Program-made: the position numbers and the translations under genes | In this document: positions 26,910 through 54,720 of the stretch, piece after piece | Numbering within the stretch: position 1 is the stretch's first letter | Layout: every line of letters begins with the position of its first letter | Source of the DNA: Desulfomicrobium sp. | Lineage (GTDB): Bacteria > Desulfobacterota > Desulfovibrionia > Desulfovibrionales > Desulfomicrobiaceae | NCBI GenBank assembly: GCA_040768745.1 | Contig: JAXGMI010000001.1 | Coordinates: 576,001 to 640,000 of the forward strand | DNA: 64,000 nucleotides | Direction of reading: 5' to 3' | Notes under the pieces: model-generated | What the model saw: the letters and a program-made list of their open reading frames with translations, nothing else | Databases searched by the model: none | What the model was told of the DNA's origin: nothing

Positions 26910-26956
26910 GCAAGAATATTTAGCAATAATATCTTGAAATAGCAAGATATTTGTCA

Positions 26957-27307
26957 CTATAGAACCGATCTGTAGTACAACCGCTGATGTGCTCCTTGCG
27001 GCGTGAGCGTGAGTCCATCGAGGAGCCAGCCAAGCTGTTGCGGGGTGATATTCATGACCTCTGACGCCCGCTCGGGCCAGCAGAATCGATGCTTCTCCAG
27101 GCGCTTGTGCCAGAGGCAGAAGCCGTTGCGATCCCAGTACAGCACCTTGATGGCGTCGCGCCTGCGGTTGCAGAAGACAAAGAGGTGTCCGGAAAAGGGG
27201 TCCAGATCGAGAATGCCCTGGGCCGTCATGCTCAGTCTGTCGATGCCGGCGCGCATGTCCGTGGTACCGGGGGCGAGATAGACCTTGGCCGCGGGCACCC
27301 TCAGCAT
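26957..27307 (-). CDS. tnpB: IS66 accessory protein TnpB
   Basis: Motifs TDMRAGIDRL, LFVFCNRRRD, KVLYWDRNGFCLWHKRLE. Confidence 0.95.
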   Translation of the reverse strand: MLRVPAAKVYLAPGTTDMRAGIDRLSMTAQGILDLDPFSGHLFVFCNRRRDAIKVLYWDRNGFCLWHKRLEKHRFCWPERASEVMNITPQQLGWLLDGLTLTPQGAHQRLYYRSVL

Positions 27308-42355: not shown

Positions 42356-43163
42356 GGGCACCCTCACGGACACGGCAGCGCTGACAGAGGTCTTCGGGGG
42401 AAAGATTGTGGAGTTCGTCCAGAACATGGATCTGGAACGTGCCCGGCCCGCTCGCTTTTTTCCCGGCCAGTTCCCCTGCGACCCCCAAAAAAGCCAGAGC
42501 CGTGGCTGCGGCGGTCACAGGGTCGGGGTCCACGGCATGGAAGGCCCCGACCAGGGCGGAGGCCGAACAGCCCATACCTGTAACGCAGGACATGAGTTCA
42601 TGCCCGCCCTCGACCAGGAAGGTCCGGAAGCCATCGGTGACCAGATCCGTGGGCCCGGTGATGGCCAGGGTCACGCCCAGCTCGCGGGCCAGAGCCCCTG
42701 CGACCTTGGCCGCGTCTGCAACCGAATGCATGGCATCTACGCCCTTGGTCTGGGTTCCCTGGCCAGCCAGGGACAGGATTTCCGAGGCATTGCCACGCAC
42801 CACGCTGACCCTGGTTTGACCCAGGATGGATTTGGCCGCCCTGGTGCGCAGAGGCGTGGCCCCGGAGCCGACGGGATCAAGGACGATGGGCTTGCCGAGT
42901 TCCGTTGCCTTGCGGCCAGCCTTGAGCATGGACGCAACCCAGACGTCGGTCAGGGTGCCGATGTTCAGGACCAGGGCGGAGGCCATGGCGGCCATGTCCT
43001 CGACCTCGTTGTCCGCATGGGCCATGACCGGGGACGCGCCGCAGGCCAGAAGGGCGTTGGCGCTGTAGTTCATGACCACGAAGTTGGTGATGCTGTGGAC
43101 CAGTGGCCTGGTTCGCCGGATGGCAGACAGGTTCTCGGCGGCTTTGCGGGCAAGATTCGACAC
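42348..43163 (-). CDS. thiM: Hydroxyethylthiazole kinase
   Basis: Motifs PLVHSITNFV, ASPVMAH, LDPVG, RGNASEI, VTGMGC; GTG start with GAGAGG RBS. Confidence 0.95.
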   Translation of the reverse strand: MSNLARKAAENLSAIRRTRPLVHSITNFVVMNYSANALLACGASPVMAHADNEVEDMAAMASALVLNIGTLTDVWVASMLKAGRKATELGKPIVLDPVGSGATPLRTRAAKSILGQTRVSVVRGNASEILSLAGQGTQTKGVDAMHSVADAAKVAGALARELGVTLAITGPTDLVTDGFRTFLVEGGHELMSCVTGMGCSASALVGAFHAVDPDPVTAAATALAFLGVAGELAGKKASGPGTFQIHVLDELHNLSPEDLCQRCRVREGAHA

Positions 43164-43242
43164 ACTGCACCTCTCACTGCAAAAACGATCTGGGGCAGCA
43201 GAGGCGAGGAAAAGAGGATCGGCCGGACAATCCAGCCCCTGT

Positions 43243-43320
43243 CTTGCAATTCCCTTCGCCGGCACGATCCAGATCAGGTTCAACGGGTATCATCTCAGGC
43301 TCCTCGCCACCCCTGCAAAA
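43243..43320 (-). ncRNA. TPP riboswitch (THI element)
   Basis: Minus strand GGGGTG...CTGAGATGATACCCGTTGAACCTGATCTGGATCGTGCCGGCGAAGGGAA, upstream of thiM. Confidence 0.93.
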
Positions 43321-43395
43321 CAGATTTTGTCTAGACCTTAGCAGGCCTGACTGTCAATTGATTCTCAAATTACGTCACCCATTTTTTCATCAATA

Positions 43396-43725
43396 TCAAT
43401 TCGTATCGATGGTGACTATCTTCCACCATTGTGCTTTTTTCCTTGCGACAAACGTCGCCCGAAAGGTCTCGCCCTTCCCGGTGTAGTTCCTCACCGTGGC
43501 CAGCGCCCGGTACGTTCTTCCTTCATCGTTTTGGACAACGATATGCGCCTGGAGTGGATTTTTCAAAGTCCCTCCGCTCACTCTACCGCTGACCGTGACT
43601 TGCCCGCCCTTTTGCCAAGCGTGAACATTGGAAAAAACAAATCCATTTGCTTGCCAAATTCCTTCCGCAAAGCTGCTGATTGCCCAAATCAGGAGGGCCA
43701 GCATGGCCGTGCCCGTCATTTTCAT
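43396..43725 (-). CDS. Small hypothetical secreted protein
   Basis: Signal peptide MKMTGTAMLALLIWAISSFA followed by a beta-rich domain; 109 aa. Confidence 0.6.
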   Translation of the reverse strand: MKMTGTAMLALLIWAISSFAEGIWQANGFVFSNVHAWQKGGQVTVSGRVSGGTLKNPLQAHIVVQNDEGRTYRALATVRNYTGKGETFRATFVARKKAQWWKIVTIDTN

Positions 43726-44048
43726 CGTGGCGCATCCTTTCAGGTTGAGGCTCCCTCTGAATTCGTATGAAAATAATTTGTTCCTGGATTCATGGCAAAC
43801 GGTCCCGTCTGCCGGGCGACATTTTCTGGCCCTCTGTTTTTCGAACGTACGCCCGCATGGAGGGTTACCCCTCTCTTTGGCTTTTCTCAAGGGCAAAGGG
43901 CTCTTTCTACTTCTCACCTGCGCTCGTTGTCTTTGGTTCCAGGGAATCCTTGCTCTCCCTGAATCCGATGTGCCACTTGACGAGCATTTTTTTATTCTTC
44001 CCTATTTGCCTGATTCAAAAAGGTTAAATCAGAACAGCGTACCAGGTA

Positions 44049-44091
44049 AAAAAAGGTTCCGGCAAGTTGCACACTTGCCGGAACCTTTTTT
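44049..44091. terminator. Bidirectional terminator hairpin (native tRNA-Arg terminator displaced by the prophage)
   Basis: 19-bp perfect stem aaaaaaggttccggcaagt / acttgccggaacctttttt. Confidence 0.85.
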
Positions 44092-44142
44092 GAATCTGGT
44101 GCCCCCACCATGACTCGAACATGGGCAAACCAGGATTAGGAA
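44079..44142. repeat. att site, left copy (includes the displaced 3' 46 nt of tRNA-Arg)
   Basis: cggaaccttttttgaatctggtgcccccaccatgactcgaacatgggcaaaccaggattaggaa, identical to 52992-53055. Confidence 0.97.
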
Positions 44143-44235
44143 CCGTCAAGGAATACGGGGAACAGCCAGACACCTTCCGGATTATGTCGGATTTAAGTAC
44201 TTTTTCATGCGAAAAAGTGGCGTTCTGGGTGGCGT

Positions 44236-44832
44236 CTATAGGTCCAATTTTTCGTCATTCTTCCAAAAATTCACTGTTAGGAGGGTGGTTTTTCCGTCCT
44301 TGATTATTTTTGCGATGTAGGTTCCTCGTTTGAGGGATATTTTTTCCGTTTTATTTCCGTTTATTATGTACGGCCCATATTTATTGTTTGTATTTTGATC
44401 AACGAACCAGACTGTTGTTTTTTCTTTCGTAGATACTATTAGTACGTCTTCTTCAGGATGCGTTTTTTTTGATTCAAACGATTTTATAGTTGTATTTAAA
44501 TTTATTGTATTTTCTTCATCTTCTTTTGTTAATCTGTAAATTTCGTTTGATATTGGTCTGCTATTGGTGATTACAATTTGGCCAACATAGTAAACAACGA
44601 ACATAACAGCCATTGCCACAGGGACGCCTAAAAGAAACCCGTTCTTATAAGATGGACGCCATCGTGTGATTCTCCAAGCATTTAAGTTTTCATTCTCTTT
44701 TCTTTTTTTCTCATTAATTACTTCAAGTGCGGAATATAGAGTGCCGCACTTGCAGCAGTATTCAGGAAAAAATTTCAGTTCTTCTTTACTCGGCCTGTGA
44801 TGGCATTGTGGGCAAGTTTTCATTTTTGTCAT
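44236..44832 (-). CDS. Prophage cargo: membrane-anchored protein with N-terminal CxxC/CxxC zinc ribbon
   Basis: CPQC...CCKCG, a single TM helix (FLLGVPVAMAVMFVVYYVG) and a C-terminal beta-rich domain; AT-rich; overlaps the repressor 3' end. Confidence 0.7.
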   Translation of the reverse strand: MTKMKTCPQCHHRPSKEELKFFPEYCCKCGTLYSALEVINEKKRKENENLNAWRITRWRPSYKNGFLLGVPVAMAVMFVVYYVGQIVITNSRPISNEIYRLTKEDEENTINLNTTIKSFESKKTHPEEDVLIVSTKEKTTVWFVDQNTNNKYGPYIINGNKTEKISLKRGTYIAKIIKDGKTTLLTVNFWKNDEKLDL

Positions 44833-45184
44833 TCTCACGAAGCAATTTTTCTAATAATTCTTCCCGTTGAGCTTGTTGAAGAAGACTGTTTTGAGCTTTT
44901 TCAGATAGCCTATCTGCGATCTTTCCAATTTTCAACGCCGTTGGGCTTTGTATGACAGTGTTTGTTTCTCCGGTCAGTAGCCACATAGGATCAACCCCGA
45001 ATTTTTCAATTAACGCAATGATTGTTTTAGATCTCGGTTCAGCCTGTTTGTTTTCCAACCTGCTCCACGCTGGTTGAGACATTCCTAAGGCTTCAGCAAA
45101 ACGATTTGTAGATAACCCGCTTTTTTCACGAGTTATTTTCAGTCTTTCCGCTATTGAATATTTAATGTTTTTTGGTATTGACAT
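44786..45184 (-). CDS. Prophage repressor, XRE/Cro-C1 HTH
   Basis: IAERLKITREKSGLSTNRFAEALGMSQPAWSRLE..EP..FGVDPMWLLTGE; divergent from the phage gene block. Confidence 0.9.
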   Translation of the reverse strand: MSIPKNIKYSIAERLKITREKSGLSTNRFAEALGMSQPAWSRLENKQAEPRSKTIIALIEKFGVDPMWLLTGETNTVIQSPTALKIGKIADRLSEKAQNSLLQQAQREELLEKLLRENDKNENLPTMPSQAE

Positions 45185-45407
45185 GATGCTCAAAAATCAA
45201 TTATTAAATAATCAAAGTTTTTGAATTAATATTCGTAGTTGCTGATAGGCTCTTTTTTTTGGCCAGAATAATGCTTAAAAGTATCAAATTGAGTACTAAA
45301 GTTAGTGAATATTAAGATTTTTCAAGCGGCTGTTGTCGGACTTTTTGACCTTTCTGCCGACTTTTCGAGATTCAAGACCACCTTACCAAAAAATCGGAGA
45401 TCAAGCC

Positions 45408-45707
45408 ATGAACCAGCATCAATTTCCCCCAACTGAGAAGGCTTTTTTTTGTACTGTATGCGGGACCAAGGAAGTTGAGTTGTATTCAGATCTTATTCAA
45501 GGGATTTTAGACAATTCTTATCCAGTAACAGGTGAAGTGTATGTCGAGCAGCCACAAATGTGTATAGGAACGGAAATTTTTTACATTTATATAAAGTTTT
45601 TTCCCAACAAAGAAGAATATCAAAATATTGAGCTTTGCAAAACACATATTAAAGTCTGTTTACAATTTAATCATATCAATCTTCTCAAACAACAACTTGG
45701 CATGTAG
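45408..45707 (+). CDS. Phage hypothetical protein (CxxC motif)
   Basis: GGAG RBS, 99-aa ORF, first gene of the rightward block. Confidence 0.55.
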   Translation: MNQHQFPPTEKAFFCTVCGTKEVELYSDLIQGILDNSYPVTGEVYVEQPQMCIGTEIFYIYIKFFPNKEEYQNIELCKTHIKVCLQFNHINLLKQQLGM

Positions 45708-45719
45708 GAGGAACAACCC

Positions 45720-46004
45720 ATGCAAAACGGTCTCATTTTCTGCGGTGCATTACTCGGCAAAAGTCACATTAAGTGGGGTGCTAAAGCTGACCGAAAGGAA
45801 GGAGAAATGCTTAACCTGTACATATGCCCGAAGGCTTCCAATGGTTCTTTGGATGCCAAGCCCGAGGAGGTGATGGTTTCTACGGATCTTATATCGGATG
45901 TTGAGCGCAGGCTTCTTACAATGAAGCAGTTCGACATTGTGTTTCTTCAGGTCGAAAAGCAGCGTGAACGACTCGTTTTCAAACAGTTTCTTGATCTGAA
46001 ATAG
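45720..46004 (+). CDS. Putative ssDNA-binding protein (gene V positional analogue)
   Basis: 94 aa, beta-rich, AGGAGG RBS, directly before the small coat genes; function assigned from position only. Confidence 0.5.
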   Translation: MQNGLIFCGALLGKSHIKWGAKADRKEGEMLNLYICPKASNGSLDAKPEEVMVSTDLISDVERRLLTMKQFDIVFLQVEKQRERLVFKQFLDLK

Positions 46005-46012
46005 GTGCTATC

Positions 46013-46147
46013 ATGTTGGATTGGTTAATTGAAATCTGGCCCTGGTTTGATCCTGACGCTTTTAACATCGGCGCGGCTGTTGTCATCGCGTGGTGGTTTA
46101 CCGGCGTTACCATTGGTTGGCTTTTCGATCTGATCCGTAAGTCATAG
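46013..46147 (+). CDS. Small hydrophobic protein, pVII/pIX-like minor coat candidate (44 aa)
   Basis: Manual translation MLDWLIEIWPWFDPDAFNIGAAVVIAWWFTGVTIGWLFDLIRKS; AGGTG RBS. Confidence 0.7.
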   Translation: MLDWLIEIWPWFDPDAFNIGAAVVIAWWFTGVTIGWLFDLIRKS

Positions 46148-46157
46148 GTGAAAAAGC

Positions 46158-46235
46158 ATGTCGCGGCGCTTTTATCATAATATGTTGGCCATTCTGGCCG
46201 TGGTCCTGATCCTTTCAACCCTTTTCCTCTTATGA
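46158..46235 (+). CDS. Very small hydrophobic protein, pVII/pIX-like candidate (25 aa)
   Basis: Manual translation MSRRFYHNMLAILAVVLILSTLFLL; AGGTG RBS. Confidence 0.4.
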   Translation: MSRRFYHNMLAILAVVLILSTLFLL

Positions 46236-46244
46236 GGTGTTACC

Positions 46245-46448
46245 ATGTTCAAACGTATTGCTTCCATCGTCGCTGGCGTTTCTGGTGCTGTCCTGGCAGC
46301 TGTCCCCGCTATGGCCGTATCTATTATCGACGTTACAGACATGACCCCTGATGTTTCCATGGTCGGAACTCTCGGCGGTGCTATCTGTACCGGTTTGCTG
46401 GGCATCTGGGGCGTTCGCAAGGTTATTAAGTTGGTTAACCGAAGCTAG
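46245..46448 (+). CDS. Major coat protein (pVIII-like) with signal peptide
   Basis: Signal peptide ending AMA; 43-aa mature part with acidic N-terminus, TM core and basic C-terminus (RKVIKLVNRS). Confidence 0.88.
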   Translation: MFKRIASIVAGVSGAVLAAVPAMAVSIIDVTDMTPDVSMVGTLGGAICTGLLGIWGVRKVIKLVNRS

Positions 46449-46454
46449 TTAGTT

Positions 46455-46489
46455 GGGGCGGGATTGTTGCAGAACTCCCGCCCCTTTTT
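46455..46489 (+). terminator. Terminator directly after the major coat gene
   Basis: ggggcggga-N12-tcccgcccc followed by ttttt; same position as the Ff central terminator. Confidence 0.8.
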
Positions 46490-46510
46490 CTTCATAATGC
46501 TGGGGGAGCC

Positions 46511-46627
46511 ATGAATTCAACTACAGAACTTGTCATATACGCCGTGTCGAATCATGGCGCTATTTTTTCAATGTTCCTTGGCGCTCTTTGTTCGTCTTTT
46601 ATGTGTTGGGGGTTTGGCCGTGGATAA
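46511..46627 (+). CDS. Small hydrophobic phage protein (38 aa)
   Basis: Manual translation MNSTTELVIYAVSNHGAIFSMFLGALCSSFMCWGFGRG; GGGGAG RBS; its stop overlaps the GTG of the next gene. Confidence 0.6.
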   Translation: MNSTTELVIYAVSNHGAIFSMFLGALCSSFMCWGFGRG

Positions 46628-48107
46628 GAGATTGATCAAAATTACATGCCTCTTTCTTATTGCTATAATATCAATCCAGTTCGTTCAGGTAGAAATACAA
46701 AAAGAAAAAGAACGCGAAAACTGGCGACAGTTCCGCCTTTATATGGATGCTCGGAAGTCAGAAGCAAATCCGCTTCTGACTGGTGTTCTGGCTTCTGCTG
46801 CTGCTCCGCATGTGCTGGCTGCTTTGGTCCTCGGCACAAGTGCCTTATGGTGCTGGACTCATGGCGGAAAAGAGGCATGGGTGCAGATGAATCAGGCTAT
46901 TTGTGATGGGGTGGCGGTTACAAAAGAGGCTGTGCAAAAGTGGATTGCTGAGCATAACGGAATAAACACGTCTTCGGGTCCTAGCGATGCTGTCGTTCCG
47001 GTCGGCGGATATGCCCCCCATTACGACGGGTATTCTTACAAGGTTACTAGTTATTCCGGTATTGTAAGTGTGTATTTCACAAACTTTAACGGGAAATCTT
47101 CATTCATACAATCCGGCGCGCTTTATATTAAAATATCCGAAACCGGTATTGATTGGCCGTCTCATAGGTACGTAATCAATCAAAATGATCGCATTCCTAC
47201 ACCTGCGGAATTTAACCCTGCCGACTATCCGCACCTTTTTCAAGGTCCGGCCTTGCTCTCAAATTGCCACGCTGTGGCCGAAAGTAAGCGGGCCCTTTTG
47301 ACTATTCCGGCCCCCACTCCCACGGCTACGGCTCCGGCTGGGGCCTCTTCTGCTCCTCCTGCTGCGATTGTTCCGCCTGTGCATCTGGTGGCCGTGGCCG
47401 CTGATGGGTCAGCTATTGATAACCGTGGCCGCAAATGGCCTCCGCTTCCGGGCGTTATCCCGGATCTGCTGAATCCTCCTTCTTTGGCTCCGGGTGGCTC
47501 TGTGGATGTGCCCCTTGCCCCTGCAGCCCCCGGCGTTGCTCCCGAAACCGTGACCGTGCCTGCTCATATCGGTCAGCCTTTGCTGGATTTGCTGCCAGCA
47601 GGGGCAACAATCAAGCATATCGTACCCGGACAGGGCGTTGTGTATGTGCCTGCTGGCGCTGCCGCCTCGCATCCCGGCATATATCAGCCGCTGCCCCCTG
47701 CCGTAGCAAATAGCCTGCCCGCTACCCTTCCGACTACCGCCGCCCCTGCGGATACCCTGCCGGGTAATCCTACCGCTGAGGCTGAAGCAGATCCCGGAAA
47801 CCCTGCCGACATAGCATTGCCGGACATTCCCGCTTTTGATCCAGAGATGGATTGGGGACAAGAAGAGCCTTGGCCGTGGGATGAGTGGATTTCAATGTTG
47901 CCTTTTATAGACGTATTGGAAGACTCAAGCATTAACCTTTCTGGTGCATCTTCTGTTATTTCCTTTAATTACTCTATGTTAGGGGCTAATAAGACGATTT
48001 CCTATAATTTTTCACAATGGGAAGGTTTGATCAATTCAATGGGTTTTATCATTTATGCATGTTCATGCTGGTATGCTCTACAACTTGCTTTACTAAAGAG
48101 AGATTAA
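46620..48107 (+). CDS. pIII-like adsorption/minor coat protein
   Basis: About 495 aa; N-terminal hydrophobic segment, long Pro/Ala-rich region and C-terminal TM anchor; lies between the pVIII and pVI candidates. Confidence 0.75.
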   Translation: MDKRLIKITCLFLIAIISIQFVQVEIQKEKERENWRQFRLYMDARKSEANPLLTGVLASAAAPHVLAALVLGTSALWCWTHGGKEAWVQMNQAICDGVAVTKEAVQKWIAEHNGINTSSGPSDAVVPVGGYAPHYDGYSYKVTSYSGIVSVYFTNFNGKSSFIQSGALYIKISETGIDWPSHRYVINQNDRIPTPAEFNPADYPHLFQGPALLSNCHAVAESKRALLTIPAPTPTATAPAGASSAPPAAIVPPVHLVAVAADGSAIDNRGRKWPPLPGVIPDLLNPPSLAPGGSVDVPLAPAAPGVAPETVTVPAHIGQPLLDLLPAGATIKHIVPGQGVVYVPAGAAASHPGIYQPLPPAVANSLPATLPTTAAPADTLPGNPTAEAEADPGNPADIALPDIPAFDPEMDWGQEEPWPWDEWISMLPFIDVLEDSSINLSGASSVISFNYSMLGANKTISYNFSQWEGLINSMGFIIYACSCWYALQLALLKRD

Positions 48108-48110
48108 TCC

Positions 48111-48461
48111 ATGCTTGCATTCATTTCTCGGATTATTGGTTGGCTTGCTGCAAAATTTGGTGTTCTTTTTGGTCAAGGTTTTCTAGTTGAGTTAGCCAAA
48201 TGGGCAGCATTTAAGCTGCTTATTACTGCCTTTATTACGGTCGGTATATACATTATTGCTAATAATCTTATTGTCTGGCTCGTGACAACTATTTTGGAGC
48301 AGACAAGTCAATTTGCTTCTCAAGGATCCATGGATTCTCCGGTTATTCAATTAACCGGTCTTGGTGCTTACTTTGCTAATCATTTACGTTTGACCCAGAG
48401 TTTTTCTTTGATTGTTACAGGTTTTACTATTCGTGCTATTCGTCAATTTTTGCCTTTCTGA
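48111..48461 (+). CDS. pVI-like minor coat protein
   Basis: 116-aa hydrophobic protein ending IRAIRQFLPF; follows the pIII-like gene. Confidence 0.78.
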   Translation: MLAFISRIIGWLAAKFGVLFGQGFLVELAKWAAFKLLITAFITVGIYIIANNLIVWLVTTILEQTSQFASQGSMDSPVIQLTGLGAYFANHLRLTQSFSLIVTGFTIRAIRQFLPF

Positions 48462-48528
48462 AACAAGCTGGACGCCCAAGGTAAAGCCCAGCGTAGTATC
48501 AATGTACAAAACGAATCGAGGATCTAAT

Positions 48529-48894
48529 ATGAACCTGCACAAGCTCAAAAAAATGATAAAAAAGCCTGAACCATGGGTAAACATCCATATGGAAACATTT
48601 TATCAACTGTGCATGTTTTATTGTGAAAATGCAGAACAAAAAGATGCATTTGCATTTATAACTAAAATGAACAAAATATCACAGCAAGATATATCAGATA
48701 CAAGGCCTCACACCGTTTTAGAGCATTTGAAAATATACCACGAATTGGTTAAATTCTACAAAGAGAATGCCGATCCTCTTGAGGTTCAAAAACTCCAATG
48801 CCTGATTTTAAGCCATATCCGACGGCTGGAAAAAAGCAAAAACGACCTGGCCAAGTCTCTCGAACGGCATGAACAGCACTTTTTTGTTTTTTGA
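48529..48894 (+). CDS. Phage cargo hypothetical protein inserted between pVI and pI
   Basis: GAGGA RBS; 121-aa helical, charged protein; A-rich coding strand unlike the T-rich neighbours. Confidence 0.6.
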   Translation: MNLHKLKKMIKKPEPWVNIHMETFYQLCMFYCENAEQKDAFAFITKMNKISQQDISDTRPHTVLEHLKIYHELVKFYKENADPLEVQKLQCLILSHIRRLEKSKNDLAKSLERHEQHFFVF

Positions 48895-48899
48895 TTTTG

Positions 48900-48960
48900 A
48901 GTTTTCACCCCATCCCCCTTCACCTCCCTTGAGGGGCGGGGGGGTGAAAACTTTCTCTTT
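48900..48960. other. Long intergenic hairpin (terminator or packaging-signal candidate)
   Basis: 12-bp perfect outer stem agttttcacccc/ggggtgaaaact with an inner stem; followed by a T-rich run and TTGACA at 48959. Confidence 0.55.
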
Positions 48961-49058
48961 GACACGGTTTATCACGAGCTTTGATTTGCAAAGCCAGTGC
49001 CACATGGGTTTATGTGGCTCGGGTTTGCAATCAAAGCGAACCTCTATGCGGGGAGCCT

Positions 49059-50360
49059 ATGTCTATTGAAATTTTGACTGGAGTTCCAGGATCTGGAAAA
49101 ACTTACTTCGCTGTTTCTCGTATCCAAAAGCTACTTACCCTTGAAACCCGGTTTTTGATTTTGCACAACATCGAAGGTCTTTATCCTTCAGATAATCGTT
49201 GTATCTCTAAGGATTGGCTTACCGATGATTTTAACGCCTCTGTCATGGCTGATTATCTTCGGAAGCTTCGGACTGAGTACGAACTAACCTCGGAAGATCC
49301 CATTTACCTATTTATTGACGAAGCACAGCGTTTCTTTCCTCCTGAACTTAAAGATCCCCAAGTTCTATACTTCTTTGATTATCACCGTCACTTTGGCGTG
49401 AATATTGTGCTTATCACGCAACATGAAAAGAAACTTACTTACAAGATCACGACTCTTGCAGAAGTCGAGATTCGCGCCGTTAATTCACGTGTCAATCCGT
49501 TCTCCTCGTTCGTCTATAAACTGTCATCTGGCGGTGAACAATACGGTACAGAAAGACTCACTAAAGACTCATCCGTTTTCCGGCTTTATAAATCGTTTCA
49601 TGCCGGCACTGGCAAAAGCACTAAATCTCGATTCCGCTATCTCGCCCTTGCATTGGTAGTTGCTGCTCCTATTGCTTGGTTGATCTTTTTTCGTGTATTT
49701 GCAAAATCCTTCGGCCTCATCGACAATGAATCTTCTTCACAAAGTGTTTCTGCTCCTCTTCCACCAGTAGAACGCCTCCCACTTTCCTCTACCAGGTCTA
49801 ACGCTGAAGCTTTCCGACCTTCTGTAGTCCAGCCTCAGGAGGATATACGCAAAACGGATTACTTCGGTCCTGAAATCAAGGAATATTCCATCAGTCGTGA
49901 CGCACTTCTCATACCCGTAAATGACATTGGCGATGCCTGGATTTCAGTTGCCCAATTTGTCGAAAAATATCCTCCTCATCTTTATGGTTATGGTTACTTC
50001 CACGCACCAAATAAGCGTTTTGTTCTTCTCTCCGCGACCAATCAGGATCTGATTTTCCCGGTCAAGAATCCAGTTTTTGTACGCTCCTTCATACGTTCTG
50101 AACCTCCTATACCTTCTGATCCGCAACGCCCACCATACCCGATTTATTTTTTGAACATGACTAATCTGCCTGACAAGTACGGCTACACGCGTACCGACTA
50201 CGAACGTGTTTTCCTACAGCAGCGTGGTTTTCAGCATGAGATTGATATGAAACCTGCCGAAACGCCGCCAAGCCCCGGCGAGGAAACGCAGCCGGGCGCG
50301 CAGGCGGGGGCGGCCCCGTCGCCCGTGAATGGGACCTCCCCCAGTTCTAACAGGGGGTGA
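49059..50360 (+). CDS. Zot/pI-like phage assembly ATPase
   Basis: Walker A GVPGSGKT, Walker B LFIDEAQ, HRHFGVNIVLITQ, LYKSF, central TM helix. Confidence 0.93.
   Translation: MSIEILTGVPGSGKTYFAVSRIQKLLTLETRFLILHNIEGLYPSDNRCISKDWLTDDFNASVMADYLRKLRTEYELTSEDPIYLFIDEAQRFFPPELKDPQVLYFFDYHRHFGVNIVLITQHEKKLTYKITTLAEVEIRAVNSRVNPFSSFVYKLSSGGEQYGTERLTKDSSVFRLYKSFHAGTGKSTKSRFRYLALALVVAAPIAWLIFFRVFAKSFGLIDNESSSQSVSAPLPPVERLPLSSTRSNAEAFRPSVVQPQEDIRKTDYFGPEIKEYSISRDALLIPVNDIGDAWISVAQFVEKYPPHLYGYGYFHAPNKRFVLLSATNQDLIFPVKNPVFVRSFIRSEPPIPSDPQRPPYPIYFLNMTNLPDKYGYTRTDYERVFLQQRGFQHEIDMKPAETPPSPGEETQPGAQAGAAPSPVNGTSPSSNRG
50335..50359 (+). promoter_or_regulatory. Predicted double-strand origin (nick hairpin) of Rep_trans/MOBT type
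   Basis: CCCCC-AGTTCTAACA-GGGGG hairpin with CTAA in the loop, about 110 bp upstream of rep. Confidence 0.7.
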
Positions 50361-50430
50361 ACAAATTACATGTATTTAGTTGTATATATAACAGGGGGTG
50401 AACAAATTACATGTATTTAGTTGTATATAT
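50349..50430 (+). repeat. Perfect 41-bp tandem duplication
   Basis: aacagggggtgaacaaattacatgtatttagttgtatatat at 50349-50389 and 50390-50430. Confidence 0.95.
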
Positions 50431-50465
50431 TTAACTGCCTTTAATTAAAAAGTTTTATTTAGAAT

Positions 50466-51578
50466 ATGGGGTTTAATATGCTAGTTTGCAATTCGATAGA
50501 CACTATATGCTTTACGATTAACCTTGACCGTTCAACTCAAATGTACCTTTTGAGCTGGCAGCTTCGGCATAATCTGATTCCAAAAGGCATCTTTCCTACG
50601 GATTGTGGCATTCCCCGTTACAAGTGGGGCCTGGAACATGACGGGATCAGGATCTATTATTCTGATTCCGAGGATCTGAAGCCAAATTGCTATATACGCT
50701 TTTCCTCCGAGTATATTCAACGTGTCGGCTATCATCGCGCATACGCTCGCTGTTGCGGGCTGCTAAAGTCCTTCGGTGTTCATCGCCCCGGTCGAGGTCT
50801 CAAACTCTCTCAGATTGATTTGGCGTTTGACTTTCAGTCAGATCTATCCCTGTATTTGGATAATCCAAAGTATCATGTTACAACACGCCTTCAGAATACT
50901 GTATCACGCCATGAGGCAGACAATCTTGTGTGGCGTCTTTGGGGTGTCGGTGCCTCCCGTGGTTACAAGGTTCGTTGTTACGATAAGTTGCAAGAGTCCC
51001 ATTCTGTTGCTGGTAAAGAATACTGGCATCAGATCTGGATAAATCAGGGCTTCACCCTTGATGCCCCGGTTTGGCGCGTCGAATACGAAATGCACCGTGA
51101 TTTCCTGAAGGAATGGAAAATTGAACGTTTGAGTCATTTTCTGAATTCTCAACTGTCGATTCAGAAGCGTCTTTTTGACCTTTGGTCCATCAAGAATCGT
51201 GATAAAAGTAACGTTAATCGTTGTTCTCATGTTCCCGAATTTCAATATCTGATCGAGCATTTCTGCCGACCTTTCCAAGAACACGAAGTTGATCGCCGTC
51301 CTGAATCCTATGAAAAGGCCGCTGACCAACAGTTAGTTAAAGCTGTTAATGCCCTTGTTTCAGCGGTCGTTAACAAAGCCGCTGCATTCTTCGCTCGAAA
51401 AAAAGAGTGTAAAAACATGGAATTGTATATTCGTCAGCGTCTAGGAGCCTTTAACGGTCTTGTTCGGGATTCAGTTTTGGGGAGTCCCACAGAATTTCTT
51501 TTGGCTGTAACCGCCCTGCTTCAAAAGAAGGGGTTCTACTACACGCCGGCCCATGAGTATTTGGAGGTAGCAGCATGA
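50466..51578 (+). CDS. Rolling-circle replication initiator, Rep_trans-like
   Basis: Motifs LSQIDLAFD, VRCYDKLQE and WRVEYEM match the Rep_trans pattern (RxDxAxD, RxYxKxxE, WxRxE). Confidence 0.82.
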   Translation: MGFNMLVCNSIDTICFTINLDRSTQMYLLSWQLRHNLIPKGIFPTDCGIPRYKWGLEHDGIRIYYSDSEDLKPNCYIRFSSEYIQRVGYHRAYARCCGLLKSFGVHRPGRGLKLSQIDLAFDFQSDLSLYLDNPKYHVTTRLQNTVSRHEADNLVWRLWGVGASRGYKVRCYDKLQESHSVAGKEYWHQIWINQGFTLDAPVWRVEYEMHRDFLKEWKIERLSHFLNSQLSIQKRLFDLWSIKNRDKSNVNRCSHVPEFQYLIEHFCRPFQEHEVDRRPESYEKAADQQLVKAVNALVSAVVNKAAAFFARKKECKNMELYIRQRLGAFNGLVRDSVLGSPTEFLLAVTALLQKKGFYYTPAHEYLEVAA

Positions 51579-51796
51579 TTCACGTCATCGAACGAAACGA
51601 GCAATTCGGCATTCAGATCTACCGAACGAACAGCGTGAACGACGCTTCGACCTTCATTCTTGAGGGCGGCTTCCCAGAGGCCAACGACGCGGTTCAAGAC
51701 ATGGAGGCTGCTTATTTTGATGATCTGTCAGCAGATATTTACGTGGTGATCGATAGCCGAGGGGACCTGTATGACTACGAAGTCATGTCTTTTTGA
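51575..51796 (+). CDS. Phage hypothetical acidic protein
   Basis: GGAGG RBS; ATGA overlap with the rep stop; 73 aa. Confidence 0.65.
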   Translation: MIHVIERNEQFGIQIYRTNSVNDASTFILEGGFPEANDAVQDMEAAYFDDLSADIYVVIDSRGDLYDYEVMSF

Positions 51797-52145
51797 TCTT
51801 GGGGCCCGCCTCGATCGAAAACAGGTCCAGGCACTGCTTGGCATTTCAGAGGATACCCTGTTAGCTGATCCTGTACGATTCGGCGGTGTCTGGCTAGGTC
51901 CTCGAAAGCTGGTGTTCTTTGAAAAACTCATATCCGAAGCGATTAGGGAACTCTATGCCAATCAAAAAGATCAGAAAAAACGGGTTATCGTGGATAGGGC
52001 GGGTGATGCTCCCGAATGGGAAGCGAGTAGAGAAGGCGTTTCCGACGAAGCCGGAGGCGATGAAATGGGAGTCCATCCAGCGGTCCGCGCTTTCGCACAT
52101 GAAAACGGGCCTCACCTGTGGCAAGTGGTTGAACAGAAGAATTGA
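51771..52145 (+). CDS. Putative excisionase-like DNA-binding protein
   Basis: LDRKQVQALLGISEDTL HTH-like segment, GAGGGG RBS, directly upstream of and overlapping the integrase. Confidence 0.5.
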   Translation: MTTKSCLFDLGARLDRKQVQALLGISEDTLLADPVRFGGVWLGPRKLVFFEKLISEAIRELYANQKDQKKRVIVDRAGDAPEWEASREGVSDEAGGDEMGVHPAVRAFAHENGPHLWQVVEQKN

Positions 52146-52986
52146 TGAATACAAAGCCCGTGGCCTTGTTTCGATCGGAGACAAGACGCGGACGTTCTCC
52201 CGGTTCTTCAAGGACGTTGACGAGCATTTGCCCGTTGCGATGGTCACGCCGGAACATGCTTTACGGCATCTTTCAAGGGTGGCCAAAGAGGTATCCGGAG
52301 ACAGGGCGAACAGATCCAAGCGTCACCTGACAGAAGCGTGGTCCTGGGGAGTTCGTTTCCTCGGCCTCCCGTCGTTCAATCCATTCGCTCAAGTCCCTGA
52401 TTATCCCACTCAGTCCAAAGATCTTGTAGTTCCTAAGGAAGACTATTTTTGGGCTGTTGTTGAACAGGCACAAGATCAGCAGGAGAAAACGGCCGTTCTC
52501 TTCTTGTATTATACGGCGTGTCGTCGTGGGGAGCTGTTGCGGCTTCAATGGTCAGAAATAGACTTTGATCGTGAAGCTGTCCGGCTTTCGTGCAGAAAGG
52601 GTCGTAATGCCTCATGGTTTTCAGCGTGGGTGCGAATCCCAGACGAATTGATTCAGGAACTCAAGCGCTGGAAGCTGCAAGCAGGGCCCGGGCCTCAGGT
52701 TTTTCGCCTGCCTCGTGCATTCCACTTTATTCAAGTCCTCTGCCAACGTGCGGGTGTCCCGCAGTTTGGCTTTCATTCCATCCGGCATCTTGTGGCTGTG
52801 CAGCTGTACCGGGCAGGGCACACCGTAGCCGAGATTCAAACACTTCTTCGCCATCGGTCCCCTCAGACCACTGAAATCTATCTTCGGTCCCTCGGGGTGT
52901 TCCAAACCTCTGAAGCGGTCGTTGAGTCGCTCGGGGTGGCGCGTCGGGTGGCGCGGGAAAAAAGAAAGGTTCCGTCGAGCTGCTAA
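51955..52986 (+). CDS. Tyrosine recombinase/integrase
   Basis: Catalytic R (TACRRGE), HxxR (FHSIRH), H (LLRHRS) and Y (TEIYL); ends 5 bp before the att repeat. Confidence 0.93.
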   Translation: MPIKKIRKNGLSWIGRVMLPNGKRVEKAFPTKPEAMKWESIQRSALSHMKTGLTCGKWLNRRIDEYKARGLVSIGDKTRTFSRFFKDVDEHLPVAMVTPEHALRHLSRVAKEVSGDRANRSKRHLTEAWSWGVRFLGLPSFNPFAQVPDYPTQSKDLVVPKEDYFWAVVEQAQDQQEKTAVLFLYYTACRRGELLRLQWSEIDFDREAVRLSCRKGRNASWFSAWVRIPDELIQELKRWKLQAGPGPQVFRLPRAFHFIQVLCQRAGVPQFGFHSIRHLVAVQLYRAGHTVAEIQTLLRHRSPQTTEIYLRSLGVFQTSEAVVESLGVARRVAREKRKVPSSC

Positions 52987-52991
52987 CTACT

Positions 52992-53055
52992 CGGAACCTT
53001 TTTTGAATCTGGTGCCCCCACCATGACTCGAACATGGGCAAACCAGGATTAGGAA
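52992..53055. repeat. att site, right copy (forms the 3' part of the intact tRNA-Arg)
   Basis: Identical to 44079-44142. Confidence 0.97.
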
Positions 53056-53087
53056 TCCTGTGCTCTATCCACCTGAGCTATGGGGGC
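53010..53087 (-). tRNA. tRNA-Arg (anticodon CCT)
   Basis: Minus strand GCCCCCATAGCTCAGGTGGATAGAGCACAGGA-TTCCTAA-TCCTG...GTTCGAGTC...TGGGGGCACCA. Confidence 0.95.
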
Positions 53088-53346
53088 ACACCCGTTGTGG
53101 AGCAAATTTCCTAGGCGAGGCGTGTTCTAAAATCAAGCACAAATCCTCCGGAGGCAGCCGTTTCTCCCGCCAGGACGTACGGGGAAGACTTGCAGAGCAG
53201 ACAGGATCCCTGCCGGATTTTCTGCCTCTTTGCCGACTAGACGGGGCATGAACGCGTTGAACATCCATGCCGCATGGTGTATTTTTGATTCATTGCGCCA
53301 ATCTCATTTCACGGCGGCCTCCAACCGAACCCGACAGGTACTCTTC

Positions 53347-54720
53347 ATGGACACATTTATGGCGGCCTCAGGGCCTGGGAAGGACTCCTACGCGCCGACG
53401 ATCTTCGATTTCGCCATGGCCGGAGGCAAGTTTGTCAGCCTGACAAGCGATGCAGGCTTTGTGGAACTGATCAAGGCCGTCCTCTACCAGGTCCTGGGCC
53501 TGTCCAAAAAATCCTTTGTCCAGTTGAGCAGACTTGAAGACATATATCACCTGCTGCGCAAGGACAGCGAAGGCAGATACGTCATCTGTCTGGAACGCAC
53601 GGCAGCAGGGGTGAACATGGCCCAGGTCATGGAAGGCATCGTGCATATCTGCCCAGGGGCCAAAATTATCGTCCTGACCCAGGAAGTGGACAAATTCTCC
53701 ACAGCCCTGCTGGTGGAACACGGCGCCCACAATATCATCACCAAGCCCATCTCCATCGCCTCGTTCACCGAGAAACTGGCTTTCACCATCGCCCCCCAGG
53801 GCAAGCTGAGCCGCCTCATCGAAAAGGGGAAGAAATTCCTGGACGCTGGAAACTGGGGCGACGCGTTGATGGTGGCCGAGGAAATTCTGGAGCAGAAGCA
53901 CGACAGTGCCGCAGGCTTCATGATCAAGGGCGACGCTTACAAGGGCCTGGAACAGGTCGGCAGGGCCGAAGAGATGTATCTGCGGGCCATCAACAGTGCG
54001 GAATTGTATATCACCCCCCTCAAGCGACTGGCGGAACTCTACGAACAGTCCGGGGACAGGGACAAGCAATTGATCTTCTTGCGCAGACTCAATGAAATCA
54101 GCCCCCTCAATACCCAGCGCATCCTGCAGATCGGGGAACTGGAAATCTCCCGAGGCAATGCAGGCCGGGCCGAGGAAATTTTTGATCAGGCCCTCGACAT
54201 TGCCCAGCGCGAGGCAGCAGGCATGATCTCCGCCTTGTCCTCCCGCATCGCGGACATCTGCGTGAACCTCAACCCCGACCTGGCCGCCCGCTATTCCAAG
54301 AAGGCCCTGGACATGAAAGGGGGTGAGATTTCCGCGGCGGACATCGCCACCGTCAATGTGCTGGGCATTTCCCTGCGCAAGCAGGGTAAGTGGCGGGAGG
54401 CCATCGCCGAATACAGCCGCGTCCTGGCCGTGGTGCCCCATCATGCCGGCCTCTTGTACAACATGGCTCTGGCCTACAGCGAGGGCCGCGAGTCGGCCAA
54501 GGCCCTGGAGATGGTCCGCAGGGCCCTGGAATGCGACCCGAACCTGCCCGCCTCGGGCAAGAACGTGGCCTTCAACATCGGCACCATTTTCCAGAAGGGC
54601 GGCCAGAACGGCACGCCCTATTTCAAGAAGGCCTATGAGCAGGATCCCAATGACCAACGGTTTTGGGAGGCCTTGAAACGCTCCCAGACCATGCACCCGG
54701 GGCAGGACCAGAATCCGTGA
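53347..54720 (+). CDS. Receiver-like domain plus tetratricopeptide repeat protein
   Basis: Receiver features (IIVLT, GAHNIITKP) followed by TPR helices (NVLGISLRKQGKWREAIAEY, LLYNMALAY). Confidence 0.8.
   Translation: MDTFMAASGPGKDSYAPTIFDFAMAGGKFVSLTSDAGFVELIKAVLYQVLGLSKKSFVQLSRLEDIYHLLRKDSEGRYVICLERTAAGVNMAQVMEGIVHICPGAKIIVLTQEVDKFSTALLVEHGAHNIITKPISIASFTEKLAFTIAPQGKLSRLIEKGKKFLDAGNWGDALMVAEEILEQKHDSAAGFMIKGDAYKGLEQVGRAEEMYLRAINSAELYITPLKRLAELYEQSGDRDKQLIFLRRLNEISPLNTQRILQIGELEISRGNAGRAEEIFDQALDIAQREAAGMISALSSRIADICVNLNPDLAARYSKKALDMKGGEISAADIATVNVLGISLRKQGKWREAIAEYSRVLAVVPHHAGLLYNMALAYSEGRESAKALEMVRRALECDPNLPASGKNVAFNIGTIFQKGGQNGTPYFKKAYEQDPNDQRFWEALKRSQTMHPGQDQNP

Follow-up and report, generated by a model that had tools for sequence, protein, structure and literature searches.

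Within a 64,000-nucleotide (nt) stretch of a Desulfomicrobium sp. genome (GenBank assembly GCA_040768745.1, contig JAXGMI010000001.1, positions 576,001 to 640,000 of the forward strand; hereafter the window, from whose first letter coordinates are counted), we found what is likely an 8.85-kb inovirus prophage bounded by repeats of the 3′ end of a tRNA-Arg(CCT) gene, an element that its own integrase likely inserted and would likely remove. An original prediction, made from the letters of the window, had described an apparently intact, self-integrating filamentous prophage at this place, and our analysis points to a prophage that is real, intact, and probably mobile. Below, related genomes are denoted by G and a number, related loci by L and a number, and public sequencing runs by X and a number.

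The boundaries carry the first part of the evidence. A repeat search over the window recovered a 95-nt direct repeat at 44048-44142 and 52961-53055 (91% identity, spacing 8913), and string comparison showed that 44079-44142 equals 52992-53055 over exactly 64 nt, which agrees with the two identical 64-bp repeats 8913 bp apart that had been claimed. Mismatches border this core at both ends (C/T at 44078/52991 and C/T at 44143/53056). Chance cannot explain a perfect match of 64 nt within 64 kb. ARAGORN placed tRNA-Arg(CCT) on the minus strand at 53010-53087; the right copy of the core comprises the 3′ 46 nt of this gene and the next 18 nt downstream, with a fragment of the tRNA as the left copy, a layout that is the classic signature of tRNA-gene integration. 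The block between the cores measures 8,849 bp, or 8,913 nt as a circle, and is single-copy in the host genome (3,092,487 bases, 3 contigs, 99.99% complete). Its GC content runs from 0.36 to 0.56 between the repeats versus 0.60 to 0.70 in the flanking genes. A tyrosine integrase gene of the element adjoins the attachment (att) site in the tRNA gene, in keeping with self-integration. The features of the boundaries are as follows (ORF, open reading frame; ΔG, folding free energy).

44048..44092, no strand: host hairpin, bearing T and A runs, immediately outside attL (fold ΔG −30.1).
44079..44142, no strand: attL core, the left copy of the 64-bp repeat, a partial tRNA-Arg 3′ end (repeat search and string comparison).
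44143..44235, no strand: non-coding left end of the element, candidate attP arm (blastn 77% to G017 and G013; conserved alignment blocks).
51955..52986, plus strand: tyrosine integrase; ORF open from 51919, likely ATG at 51955, R...HxxR...Y residues present.
52961..53005, no strand: phage-borne hairpin with T and A runs (fold ΔG −17.7).
52992..53055, no strand: attR core, the right copy of the 64-bp repeat (repeat search and string comparison).
53010..53087, minus strand: intact tRNA-Arg(CCT), the integration target or attB (ARAGORN; an empty-site contig of X10 joins 44142 to 53056).

The integrase matched Pfam Phage_integrase at E = 2.9e-18 (66.7 bits versus a cut-off of 27.1) and phrog_1 at 1.1e-39. 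The two hairpins, at 44048-44092 and 52961-53005, are paralogous members of the 95-nt repeat. Originally, the former likely served as the bidirectional terminator 3′ of tRNA-Arg, and the latter likely terminates int on the plus strand and, once the phage is integrated, replaces the tRNA terminator on the minus strand. About 90 non-coding nt just inside attL are kept in all three elements compared here (this one and the prophages of G017 and G013), and from this conservation the stretch at 44143-44235 would serve as an attP arm with candidate binding sites for Int or Xis.

The target gene itself has a wider history. In several genomes of the same genus, 2 to 5 partial 3′ copies of tRNA-Arg(CCT) lie within a few kb to 20 kb (tandem fragments at G024:C1:824616-831599, G015:C1:847614-861317, G021:C167:34519-42128 and G013:C21:3579-23374). 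Because several genomes carry such multiple 3′ fragments, tRNA-Arg(CCT) is a hot spot of integration, with different islands stacked in tandem.

Between the boundaries lies an uninterrupted gene set. All ORFs of the element are open in the ORF list and stand in the order that had been proposed, and three of the 14 scanned ORFs (Zot, Phage_integrase and the helix-turn-helix (HTH) families HTH_31/HTH_3) pass their Pfam cut-offs. The morphogenesis module comprises the following features (aa, amino acids; TM, transmembrane; SD, Shine-Dalgarno).

46013..46147, plus strand: 44-aa single-TM protein, a pVII/pIX-type minor coat candidate by position (phrog_1147 at 5.2e-6; TM segment; SD motif).
46158..46235, plus strand: 25-aa single-TM ORF, a pVII/pIX-type candidate by position (SD motif conserved).
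46245..46448, plus strand: major coat protein of pVIII type, 67 aa (translation; phrog_2186 'virion structural protein' at 7.8e-5).
46455..46492, plus strand: hairpin and T-run terminator directly 3′ of the coat gene (ΔG −21.6).
46511..46627, plus strand: 38-aa single-TM ORF between the terminator and pIII (SD motif; TM segment).
46632..48107, plus strand: pIII-like adsorption protein, 525-aa ORF open from 46530, likely TTG start at 46632.
48111..48461, plus strand: pVI-like multi-TM minor coat protein, 116 aa (phrog_974 at 7.4e-4; TM segments).
48502..48894, plus strand: accessory (cargo) gene, about 130 aa, ORF open from 48412, variable between phage variants.
48899..48953, plus strand: long GC-rich hairpin between the cargo gene and zot (inverted repeat with 23-nt arms; ΔG −35.5; retained in X3).
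49059..50360, plus strand: Zot/pI morphogenesis ATPase, ORF open from 48981, ATG at 49059 with SD motif.

For the frame at 49059-50360, where a non-Zot match would have refuted the inovirus call, the match returned is Zot (Pfam E = 7.6e-17, 61.8 bits versus a cut-off of 20.3; phrog_197 at 3.3e-37). Its translation contains the motifs GVPGSGKT and LFIDEAQ, which we take to be Walker A and Walker B, together with one TM segment (residues 217-244) and a C-terminal domain. When Zot was searched by tblastn, 85 phage records were recovered, all of them inoviruses (Vibrio, gut and others). The 67-aa coat translation follows the pVIII pattern: its signal peptide ends in AMA, and the 43-aa mature protein runs from an acidic N-terminus through a hydrophobic core to a basic C-terminus. 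The terminator that had been placed after the coat gene proved to be a real hairpin; it was overlooked by a consensus terminator scan, and in alignment G017 has a hairpin of differing sequence at the same post-coat spot. Taken together, the Zot score, the pVIII-type coat, the conserved small membrane ORFs and an initiator of the Rep_trans fold (described below) substantiate the identification as a filamentous phage; the element combines a pI/Zot with a TM segment, a pVIII-type coat and a rolling-circle initiator, as inovirus criteria have it.

The smallest genes were assessed by their divergence from G017. The 44-aa ORF is 61% identical there, with 13, 8 and 28 substitutions at the first, second and third codon positions; the 38-aa ORF is 72% identical (7, 5 and 22), and the coat gene is 80% identical over residues 22-67 (22, 13 and 35). 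Because amino acid identity of 61-80% goes together with a third-position substitution bias, these three ORFs are, to judge from how they have diverged, genuine genes. The 25-aa ORF is also 72% identical, and its counts (6, 4 and 7) come from an ORF too short to tell. The conservation of ORFs of 25-44 codons in G017 backs the earlier remark that some structural genes are too small for routine callers. Larger proteins of the module showed comparable relationships: the pVI-like protein is 66% identical in G017, and the pIII-like ORF, which has an N-terminal signal/TM segment, Pro/Ala-rich linkers and a C-terminal TM anchor at residues 504-522 of 525, is 59% identical over its C-terminal 134 aa and only 28% identical in its N-terminal part. 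The cargo gene is missing in G017 and G013 and matched no family in Pfam, PHROG and PADLOC scans. The hairpin that follows it, at 48899-48953, is a candidate terminator or, alternatively, a candidate packaging signal or minus-strand origin.

We next consider the replication initiator (Rep), for which family libraries and structure gave different answers. Two features belong to this part.

50348..50429, no strand: perfect 41-bp tandem duplication in the zot-rep spacer, a strain polymorphism and not a conserved iteron pair.
50478..51578, plus strand: rolling-circle replication initiator with a Rep_trans-like fold, 370-aa ORF (open from 50466; homologues start at MLV, 50478).

Rep had no match in Pfam (even at E 10), PHROG or NCBIfam, no PDB sequence match by phmmer, and none by tblastn at E 1 in 50,697 phage records; at PHROG E 5, the sole row of interest was 'replication initiation protein' (E 0.19). 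A word-indexed search retrieved 35 related proteins, none with a precomputed Pfam domain, and two of them are hypothetical proteins of a Deltaproteobacteria metagenome-assembled genome (MAG) and of a Desulfovibrionales bacterium. Exhaustive HMMER searching gave 336 clusters at E <= 1e-3, 21 at E <= 1e-10 and 8 at E <= 1e-30. An alignment of 27 Rep sequences contains the invariant motifs S-Q-x-D-x-x-F-D-F, K-V-R-x-Y-D-K-x-x-E and W-R-x-E-x-E-x-x-R, and residues Y172, D173, K174, R204, E206 and E208 are invariant in all 27.

An AlphaFold (AF2) model of Rep built from the family alignment reached a mean pLDDT (predicted local distance difference test) of 84.6. Foldseek ranked staphylococcal RepDE and Geobacillus RepSTK1 at the top (E 3e-12 to 5e-11, probability 1.00), with TATA-binding-protein-like folds far below. 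Alignment of the same model with VIA-align gave Z scores of 14.9, 14.3 and 13.5 to RepDE/RepSTK1, at a root-mean-square deviation (rmsd) of 3.5-3.6 Å over 209-215 residues, and the next unrelated rows had Z scores of only 7.5. In a structural search of BFVD, the best matches were Rep proteins of Inoviridae. The family profile also matched RepDE (4cwc) directly (E 1.6e-5), with DLAFDF / R(I/V)Y(N/D)K / WRVE.E aligned. In this alignment the Tyr of R-I-Y-N-K in RepDE, the catalytic Tyr of RepD, falls on Y172 within KVRCYDK, which we accordingly predict, from the model and the alignment, to be the catalytic Tyr of Rep. The Rep_trans call of the original prediction therefore appears right as fold and mechanism, with support from the predicted structure and the family profile, whereas Pfam, PHROGs and NCBIfam see nothing and the protein stands outside the current Pfam PF02486 model. 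The relatives of Rep form a sizeable, largely unannotated group of initiators bridging two Pfam families: among 30 distant relatives, 27 had no Pfam match, one matched Rep_trans at 28.8 bits (cut-off 29.6), and two matched Phage_CRI at 20.8 and 24.0 bits (cut-off 21.7).

The zot-rep spacer was considered as the replication origin, which had been proposed to lie there, and found no support. The 41-bp unit is polymorphic, being single in X3 (joint 50347>50389); G013 matches only 50389-50459; G017 has no such spacer, since its Zot and Rep frames overlap; and the fold is weak (ΔG −15.6).

Comparison with related prophages places the element in a family and bears directly on whether it is intact. 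Both G017 and G013, genomes of the same genus, carry related prophages at the same tRNA-Arg. The G017 prophage is 100% identical to L022, a viral genome (UViG) of IMG/VR (10,937 nt) and the sole IMG/VR match to Rep. Its structural module is homologous to ours and in the same order (Zot 68% identical, Int 80%), and it uses the same tRNA-Arg att site. It differs in three respects: a 399-aa DDE-type transposase-like ORF lies on the opposite strand inside Zot (L022 6155-7354, minus), Rep is split into 300-aa and 109-aa frames, and the 99/124-aa first-operon, 73-aa and cargo ORFs are absent. The G017/L022 element is decayed, though IMG/VR lists it as a viral genome. Against this relative with an insertion sequence in Zot and a split Rep, the element described here has all ORFs open, and the word intact in the original prediction is borne out in that sense.

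G013 shares the other half of the element. Together with L029, a JGI (Joint Genome Institute) metagenome contig 92-94% identical to the G013 element, it resembles our prophage in the repressor (58%), the first-operon 124-aa ORF (59%), the 94-aa ORF (84%), Rep (79%), the 73-aa ORF (81%), the ORF before int (90%) and Int (88%), and G013 has the same tRNA-Arg site. Its morphogenesis module, in contrast, is unrelated: Zot is 24% identical, and there is no match for coat, pIII, pVI or the tiny ORFs. The interval between its att copies is also longer, at about 15.5 kb in G013.

More widely, Zot matches at E <= 1e-3 occurred in 10 of 301 species genomes of the order, with full-length domains only in G000, G010, G013, G017 and G094. 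The last of these, from another family, has two equal-scoring Zot domains 8.7 kb apart (G094:C44:18057-18533 and 26789-27265), an arrangement that would fit tandem inovirus prophages. Scans for Rep relatives returned one locus in GTDB (L023, RZYD01000382.1, 2,636 nt, with a 51%-identical Rep) and four in JGI metagenomes, and none of these four showed circularity. Both L023 and a contig carrying an 81%-identical homologue of the 94-aa protein (P0046) are labelled as Bacteroidia MAGs; these labels probably reflect mis-binned small phage contigs and not a Bacteroidia host. Logan contigs bearing homologues measure 8.3-9.3 kb, near unit size, which could come from graph breaks at att as easily as from free circles. 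Megablast of the whole element against the phage collection gave no match.

Public sequencing runs show that the site exists both with and without the phage. The interval 43600-53500 is complete in two anaerobic-digester runs, a possible source of the genome, and partial in runs of eight other studies; the runs were read as Logan contigs, which are built from 31-letter words, shorter than the 64-bp core. In X10, a wastewater run from a separate study, a contig of 890 nt at depth 18 matches 43600-44142 perfectly and then continues for 16 letters that equal 53056-53071, a string unique in the window (exact match; the norm for a bridging record is 31). Here a single core links the left flank to the tRNA body, and we read the X10 site as an empty attB. 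Phage pieces in X10 have a depth of 2-5 and more differences. A left-flank contig of X7 also extends 16 letters past 44142 and was not counted as an empty site.

The runs also contain a sister phage. X3, from another digester study, has identical flanks and a backbone about 99% identical to ours, with a few dozen differing positions; within it, 1286 different letters stand in place of 46628-47832 (residues 33-434 of the 525-aa pIII ORF), 180 letters take the place of 48462-48882 (the cargo ORF), and the 41-bp unit is present only once. The exchanged pIII cassette begins immediately past the stop of the 38-aa ORF. These variants with swapped pIII point to a circulating population. At 48462-48492, contigs of X1, X2 and X10 match about 31 nt and then continue into unrelated sequence on either side, and this bin has higher depth, which suggests that another element shares the junction following the pVI stop and that cassettes are exchanged there. 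In X8, a metatranscriptome that is likely from the source study, seven contigs are listed on the element, between 47806 and 52493, and cover the pIII 3′ end, pVI with the cargo gene (one contig at 48316-48635), Zot, Rep, the 73-aa and 124-aa ORFs, and int; none is listed on 44593-47571, where a stretch without cover is no evidence either way.

Several observations weigh against a mobile, functional phage and have to be set beside this record. Contigs break inside the core where phage and host co-occur, and X1, X2 and X3 cannot separate integrated from excised copies. The X10 empty site could equally be a never-lysogenised lineage, which would speak for mobility by integration and not for excision. 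The X8 RNA library may contain DNA. Phage contigs are no deeper than their flanks (10-12 versus 16-20 in X1, 15-17 versus 28-31 in X2), so the read-depth excess that had been anticipated over the element is absent from both runs; Logan depths are per contig and are not copy numbers, and they give no sign of an amplified episome. No circular or back-joining junction occurred in the 8 runs examined, and no attP junction, ssDNA (single-stranded DNA) or particle was seen. The pIII-like protein had no family match in Pfam and PHROG scans, the position of the origin was not located, and the labels SSB (ssDNA-binding protein) and Xis are candidates given by position, with one ESM lead for SSB. As to the earlier statement that the element can excise, the natural empty attB of X10 favours it indirectly, whereas an attP junction was not seen.

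The most serious alternative accepts the same inovirus prophage and holds that it is dead or domesticated, fixed in this lineage with neither excision nor particles, for example after loss of a regulatory site or of receptor pairing, a defect that open ORFs would not betray. We regard this as unlikely, yet as deserving real weight. It would account for the lack of junction, ssDNA and particle evidence and for a depth not above the flanks; the phage has no secretin of its own and relies on a host secretin that may not be compatible; and its closest catalogued relative is decayed, which means that decay occurs in this phage group. A dead prophage is, however, harder to reconcile with core ORFs that are open and att cores identical over 64 nt, with the coexistence of lysogenic and empty sites in nature, and with coding constraint even on ORFs of 38-44 aa. 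Moreover, pIII-swapped variants on a backbone of about 99% identity argue for recent exchange among replicating phages.

That the element is not a virus at all, and instead an integrative island or the remnant of a rolling-circle plasmid with a Zot-like P-loop ATPase, is very improbable. Nine of the 14 scanned ORFs have no Pfam match at E 0.01 and only three pass the cut-off, and long unrelated frames elsewhere in the order also give partial Zot-like matches; yet the element has the full Ff/Pf-type order with a pVIII coat, tiny TM ORFs, an anchored pIII, pVI and a full-length Zot with its TM segment, its Zot tblastn matches are all inoviruses, and its best BFVD Rep matches are Inoviridae. Least probable of all is an assembly artefact in which a free phage contig was threaded into the chromosome of a MAG through the 64-bp repeat: the genome does come from a digester metagenome and short-word graphs are ambiguous across the core, but related elements sit at the same tRNA-Arg in the same orientation with their own att repeats in the one-contig G017 and in G013, and a paralogue of the host terminator hairpin is present at the phage end, as a genuine attP would lead one to expect.

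On the preferred reading of a mobile inovirus prophage, the life cycle might run as follows. The HTH repressor would keep the divergent, rightward operon repressed. Upon induction, attL and attR would be recombined by Int, perhaps aided by the 124-aa protein encoded before it, to give an 8,913-nt circle, on which the Rep_trans-like protein would nick the origin and drive rolling-circle ssDNA synthesis. A small protein, perhaps the 94-aa one, would coat the ssDNA. The inner-membrane Zot/pI ATPase would then act with the single host secretin to extrude a filament built from the 43-aa mature coat, with the tiny TM proteins at one tip and pIII/pVI at the opposite tip. The host genome has exactly one Secretin-domain gene, and use of the host secretin is proposed because the phage itself encodes none. 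Upon integration, the phage would supply the tRNA 3′ end and a substitute terminator, leaving the tRNA whole.

The regulatory and early genes lie at the left end.

44236..44838, minus strand: 200-aa protein, zinc ribbon (CxxC...CxxC) at the N-terminus, single TM segment at residues 64-92 (ORF and TM scan).
44786..45193, minus strand: HTH (XRE/cI-type) repressor candidate, divergent from the structural genes (Pfam, PHROG).
45408..45707, plus strand: first gene of the rightward operon, 99 aa (ATG 45408) or 124 aa (TTG 45333), conserved in relatives.
45720..46004, plus strand: 94-aa protein at the gene-V position, candidate ssDNA-binding protein (position; SD-like motif upstream).

The repressor candidate, whose Pfam HTH score is 43 bits, matched HTH_31 at 4.8e-11, HTH_3 at 7.1e-10 and a PHROG transcriptional repressor at 1.4e-16, as well as the NCBIfam RstR family at 4.5e-8, below the cut-off of that family. 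Its neighbour, the 200-aa protein, is 36% identical to an ORF at the same place in G017 and had no significant family in Pfam, PHROG and PADLOC scans. The product of the first rightward gene is 59% identical in G013 and 60% in L029; no match was found in Pfam (E 10) or PHROG (E 5), and ESM Atlas scores of at most 0.86 gave no usable lead. Seventeen full-length homologues and a third-position bias (32, 20 and 52) against G017 show the 94-aa ORF to be a real gene. One ESM Atlas cluster of Putative_G5P (PF17426) was among its leads (score 0.91, 179 shared features, rank 26). Pfam and PHROGs gave no match for it, a Pfam scan of 15 family members gave two chance rows only, and its AF2 model, at pLDDT 51.7, is too poor for a fold search. 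PADLOC returned generic HTH matches only as regards defence genes. Consensus scans of promoters (10 found versus 13.7 expected) and terminators (9 found versus 11.5 expected) were not enriched.

Two further genes stand between rep and int.

51575..51796, plus strand: 73-aa protein, translationally coupled to rep, conserved in G013.
51771..52145, plus strand: 124-aa protein overlapping the 5′ part of int, candidate excisionase or recombination directionality factor by position, conserved in G013 and G017.

The 73-aa ORF, with substitutions of 7, 7 and 32 against G013, had no family in Pfam (E 10), PHROG (E 5) or PADLOC scans. The 124-aa ORF is 72% identical in G017, and its non-overlapping part shows third-position bias against both G013 (2, 0 and 12) and G017 (8, 5 and 24). 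Within the 190 nt that it shares with int, the substitution pattern (6, 6 and 18) is that of the int frame, and the overlap diverges less than the remaining int (7% versus 20% in G013; 16% versus 27% in G017). Neither HTH_17 nor any other excisionase family was detected in 51771-52145, 51575-51796 or 45408-45707 (Pfam E 10, PHROG E 5).

Outside the element, the host flank at 43000-44047, about 1 kb before attL, has a GC content of only 51-55% and contains a 173-aa ORF at 43396-43917 (minus strand) with a hydrophobic N-terminal segment and no significant family. The empty-site contig of X10 runs from this flank straight into the tRNA, which places the flank outside the phage; it may be an older insertion. 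To the right of the tRNA, 53230-54720 is a host gene for a 496-aa protein with C-terminal tetratricopeptide (TPR) repeats, whose N-terminal part is weakly receiver-like (Response_reg E 0.0079, below the cut-off).

The genome was obtained from an anaerobic-digester metagenome. Its dsrA scored 603 bits against an equivalog cut-off of 393, with a dsrB-like neighbour, and the phosphoglucomutase encoded beside the element is 81-85% identical to proteins of Desulfomicrobium escambiense, salsuginis, apsheronum, macestii, norvegicum and orale. Both sequence matches support the probable sulfate reducer of the Desulfovibrionales that the original prediction had supposed as the host, and they narrow it to a Desulfomicrobium-like species.

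In digesters and oil systems, sulfate reducers are the drivers of sulfide production, corrosion and souring; few genetic tools exist for them. There is close to an even chance, in our estimate slightly less, that the element represents a live, chronically shed population of Desulfomicrobium phages across digesters and wastewater, which exchanges part of pIII and the cargo gene and uses a Rep_trans-like initiator unseen by family libraries. If so, it would be the first experimentally tractable inovirus for sulfate-reducing bacteria and might serve as a vector for gene delivery or display. As an intact inovirus whose tRNA att site is defined, it is a candidate for induction work, for an integrative vector and for studies of chronic-phage effects on Desulfomicrobium populations, and the natural lysogenic and empty sites and natural pIII variants raise its value. 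The analysis also exposes a clade of Rep_trans-like initiators missed by Pfam, PHROGs and NCBIfam, along with three conserved genes, 25-44 codons long, that would be lost in routine gene calling.

Inovirus prophages associated with tRNAs and integrases are in general already known, and the novelty first attributed to the element was overstated: a relative is already an IMG/VR entry (L022), and the parts of Roux 2019 at hand describe thousands of inovirus sequences, including prophages with att in a tRNA or beside an integrase, with Deltaproteobacteria among the host clades of a figure (PMC6813254). Full-text searches returned no paper on filamentous phages of Desulfovibrio, Desulfomicrobium or sulfate reducers, although the supplements of Roux 2019 may list such hosts; the excerpts of two papers combining 'inovirus' with Desulfovibrio (PMC8269241, PMC13649929) contain no filamentous phage of these hosts. 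An excerpt of the former gives inovirus genomes as about 5-15 kb (PMC8269241). The 8,913-nt circle lies within the inovirus size range, and its one-strand order is coat, adsorption protein, pVI, pI.

The initiator compares best with RepD/RepDE of the pC221/pT181 group and with RepSTK1 (4cwe, 4cwc, 4cij), whose fold it shares over Rep residues 5-271 (rmsd 3.6 Å over 215 residues at Z 14.9). Identity to these proteins is only 14-20%, and Rep here has an extra, helical C-terminal part of about 100 residues. Among filamentous phages, CTXphi of Vibrio cholerae resembles the element in its Zot-family pI, in an RstR-like HTH repressor (by a weak NCBIfam match), in the absence of a phage secretin and in existing as an integrated prophage. 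CTXphi lacks an integrase and relies on host XerCD at dif, whereas the element here has its own integrase and a tRNA att site.

The closer architectural parallel is with the Pf phages Pf4 (Pf-tRNA-Gly) and Pf6 (Pf-tRNA-Met) of P. aeruginosa. The original prediction had likened the element to Pf4 rather than to CTXphi; this stands as a statement about architecture but not about sequence, as no sequence kinship was detected and none of the 85 Zot tblastn records is listed under Pseudomonas. Pf phages also have an excisionase of HTH_17/MerR type (XisF4, XisF5, Xis-Met), of which none is detectable here; the repressor here is of XRE type, and the host is an anaerobic Desulfomicrobium-like bacterium. 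The likenesses concern organization. In Pf phages as here, one boundary carries the phage's own tyrosine integrase and the opposite boundary a repressor. According to the portions of PMC7549136 available to us, Pf phages enter tRNA genes by their own integrases, with two structural lineages that cross integration types; their attP is a tRNA 3′ fragment (27 bp for tRNA-Gly and 46 bp for tRNA-Met, versus 46 nt plus 18 nt here); and their gene order is G5P, small ORFs, G8P, G3P, G6P, G1P, replication initiator and Int (PMC7549136). In Pf phages, on the same partial source, the structural module varies independently of the integration module (PMC7549136), and the mosaics formed here by G017, with a homologous structural module, and G013, with an unrelated one, repeat that pattern at a single tRNA-Arg site.

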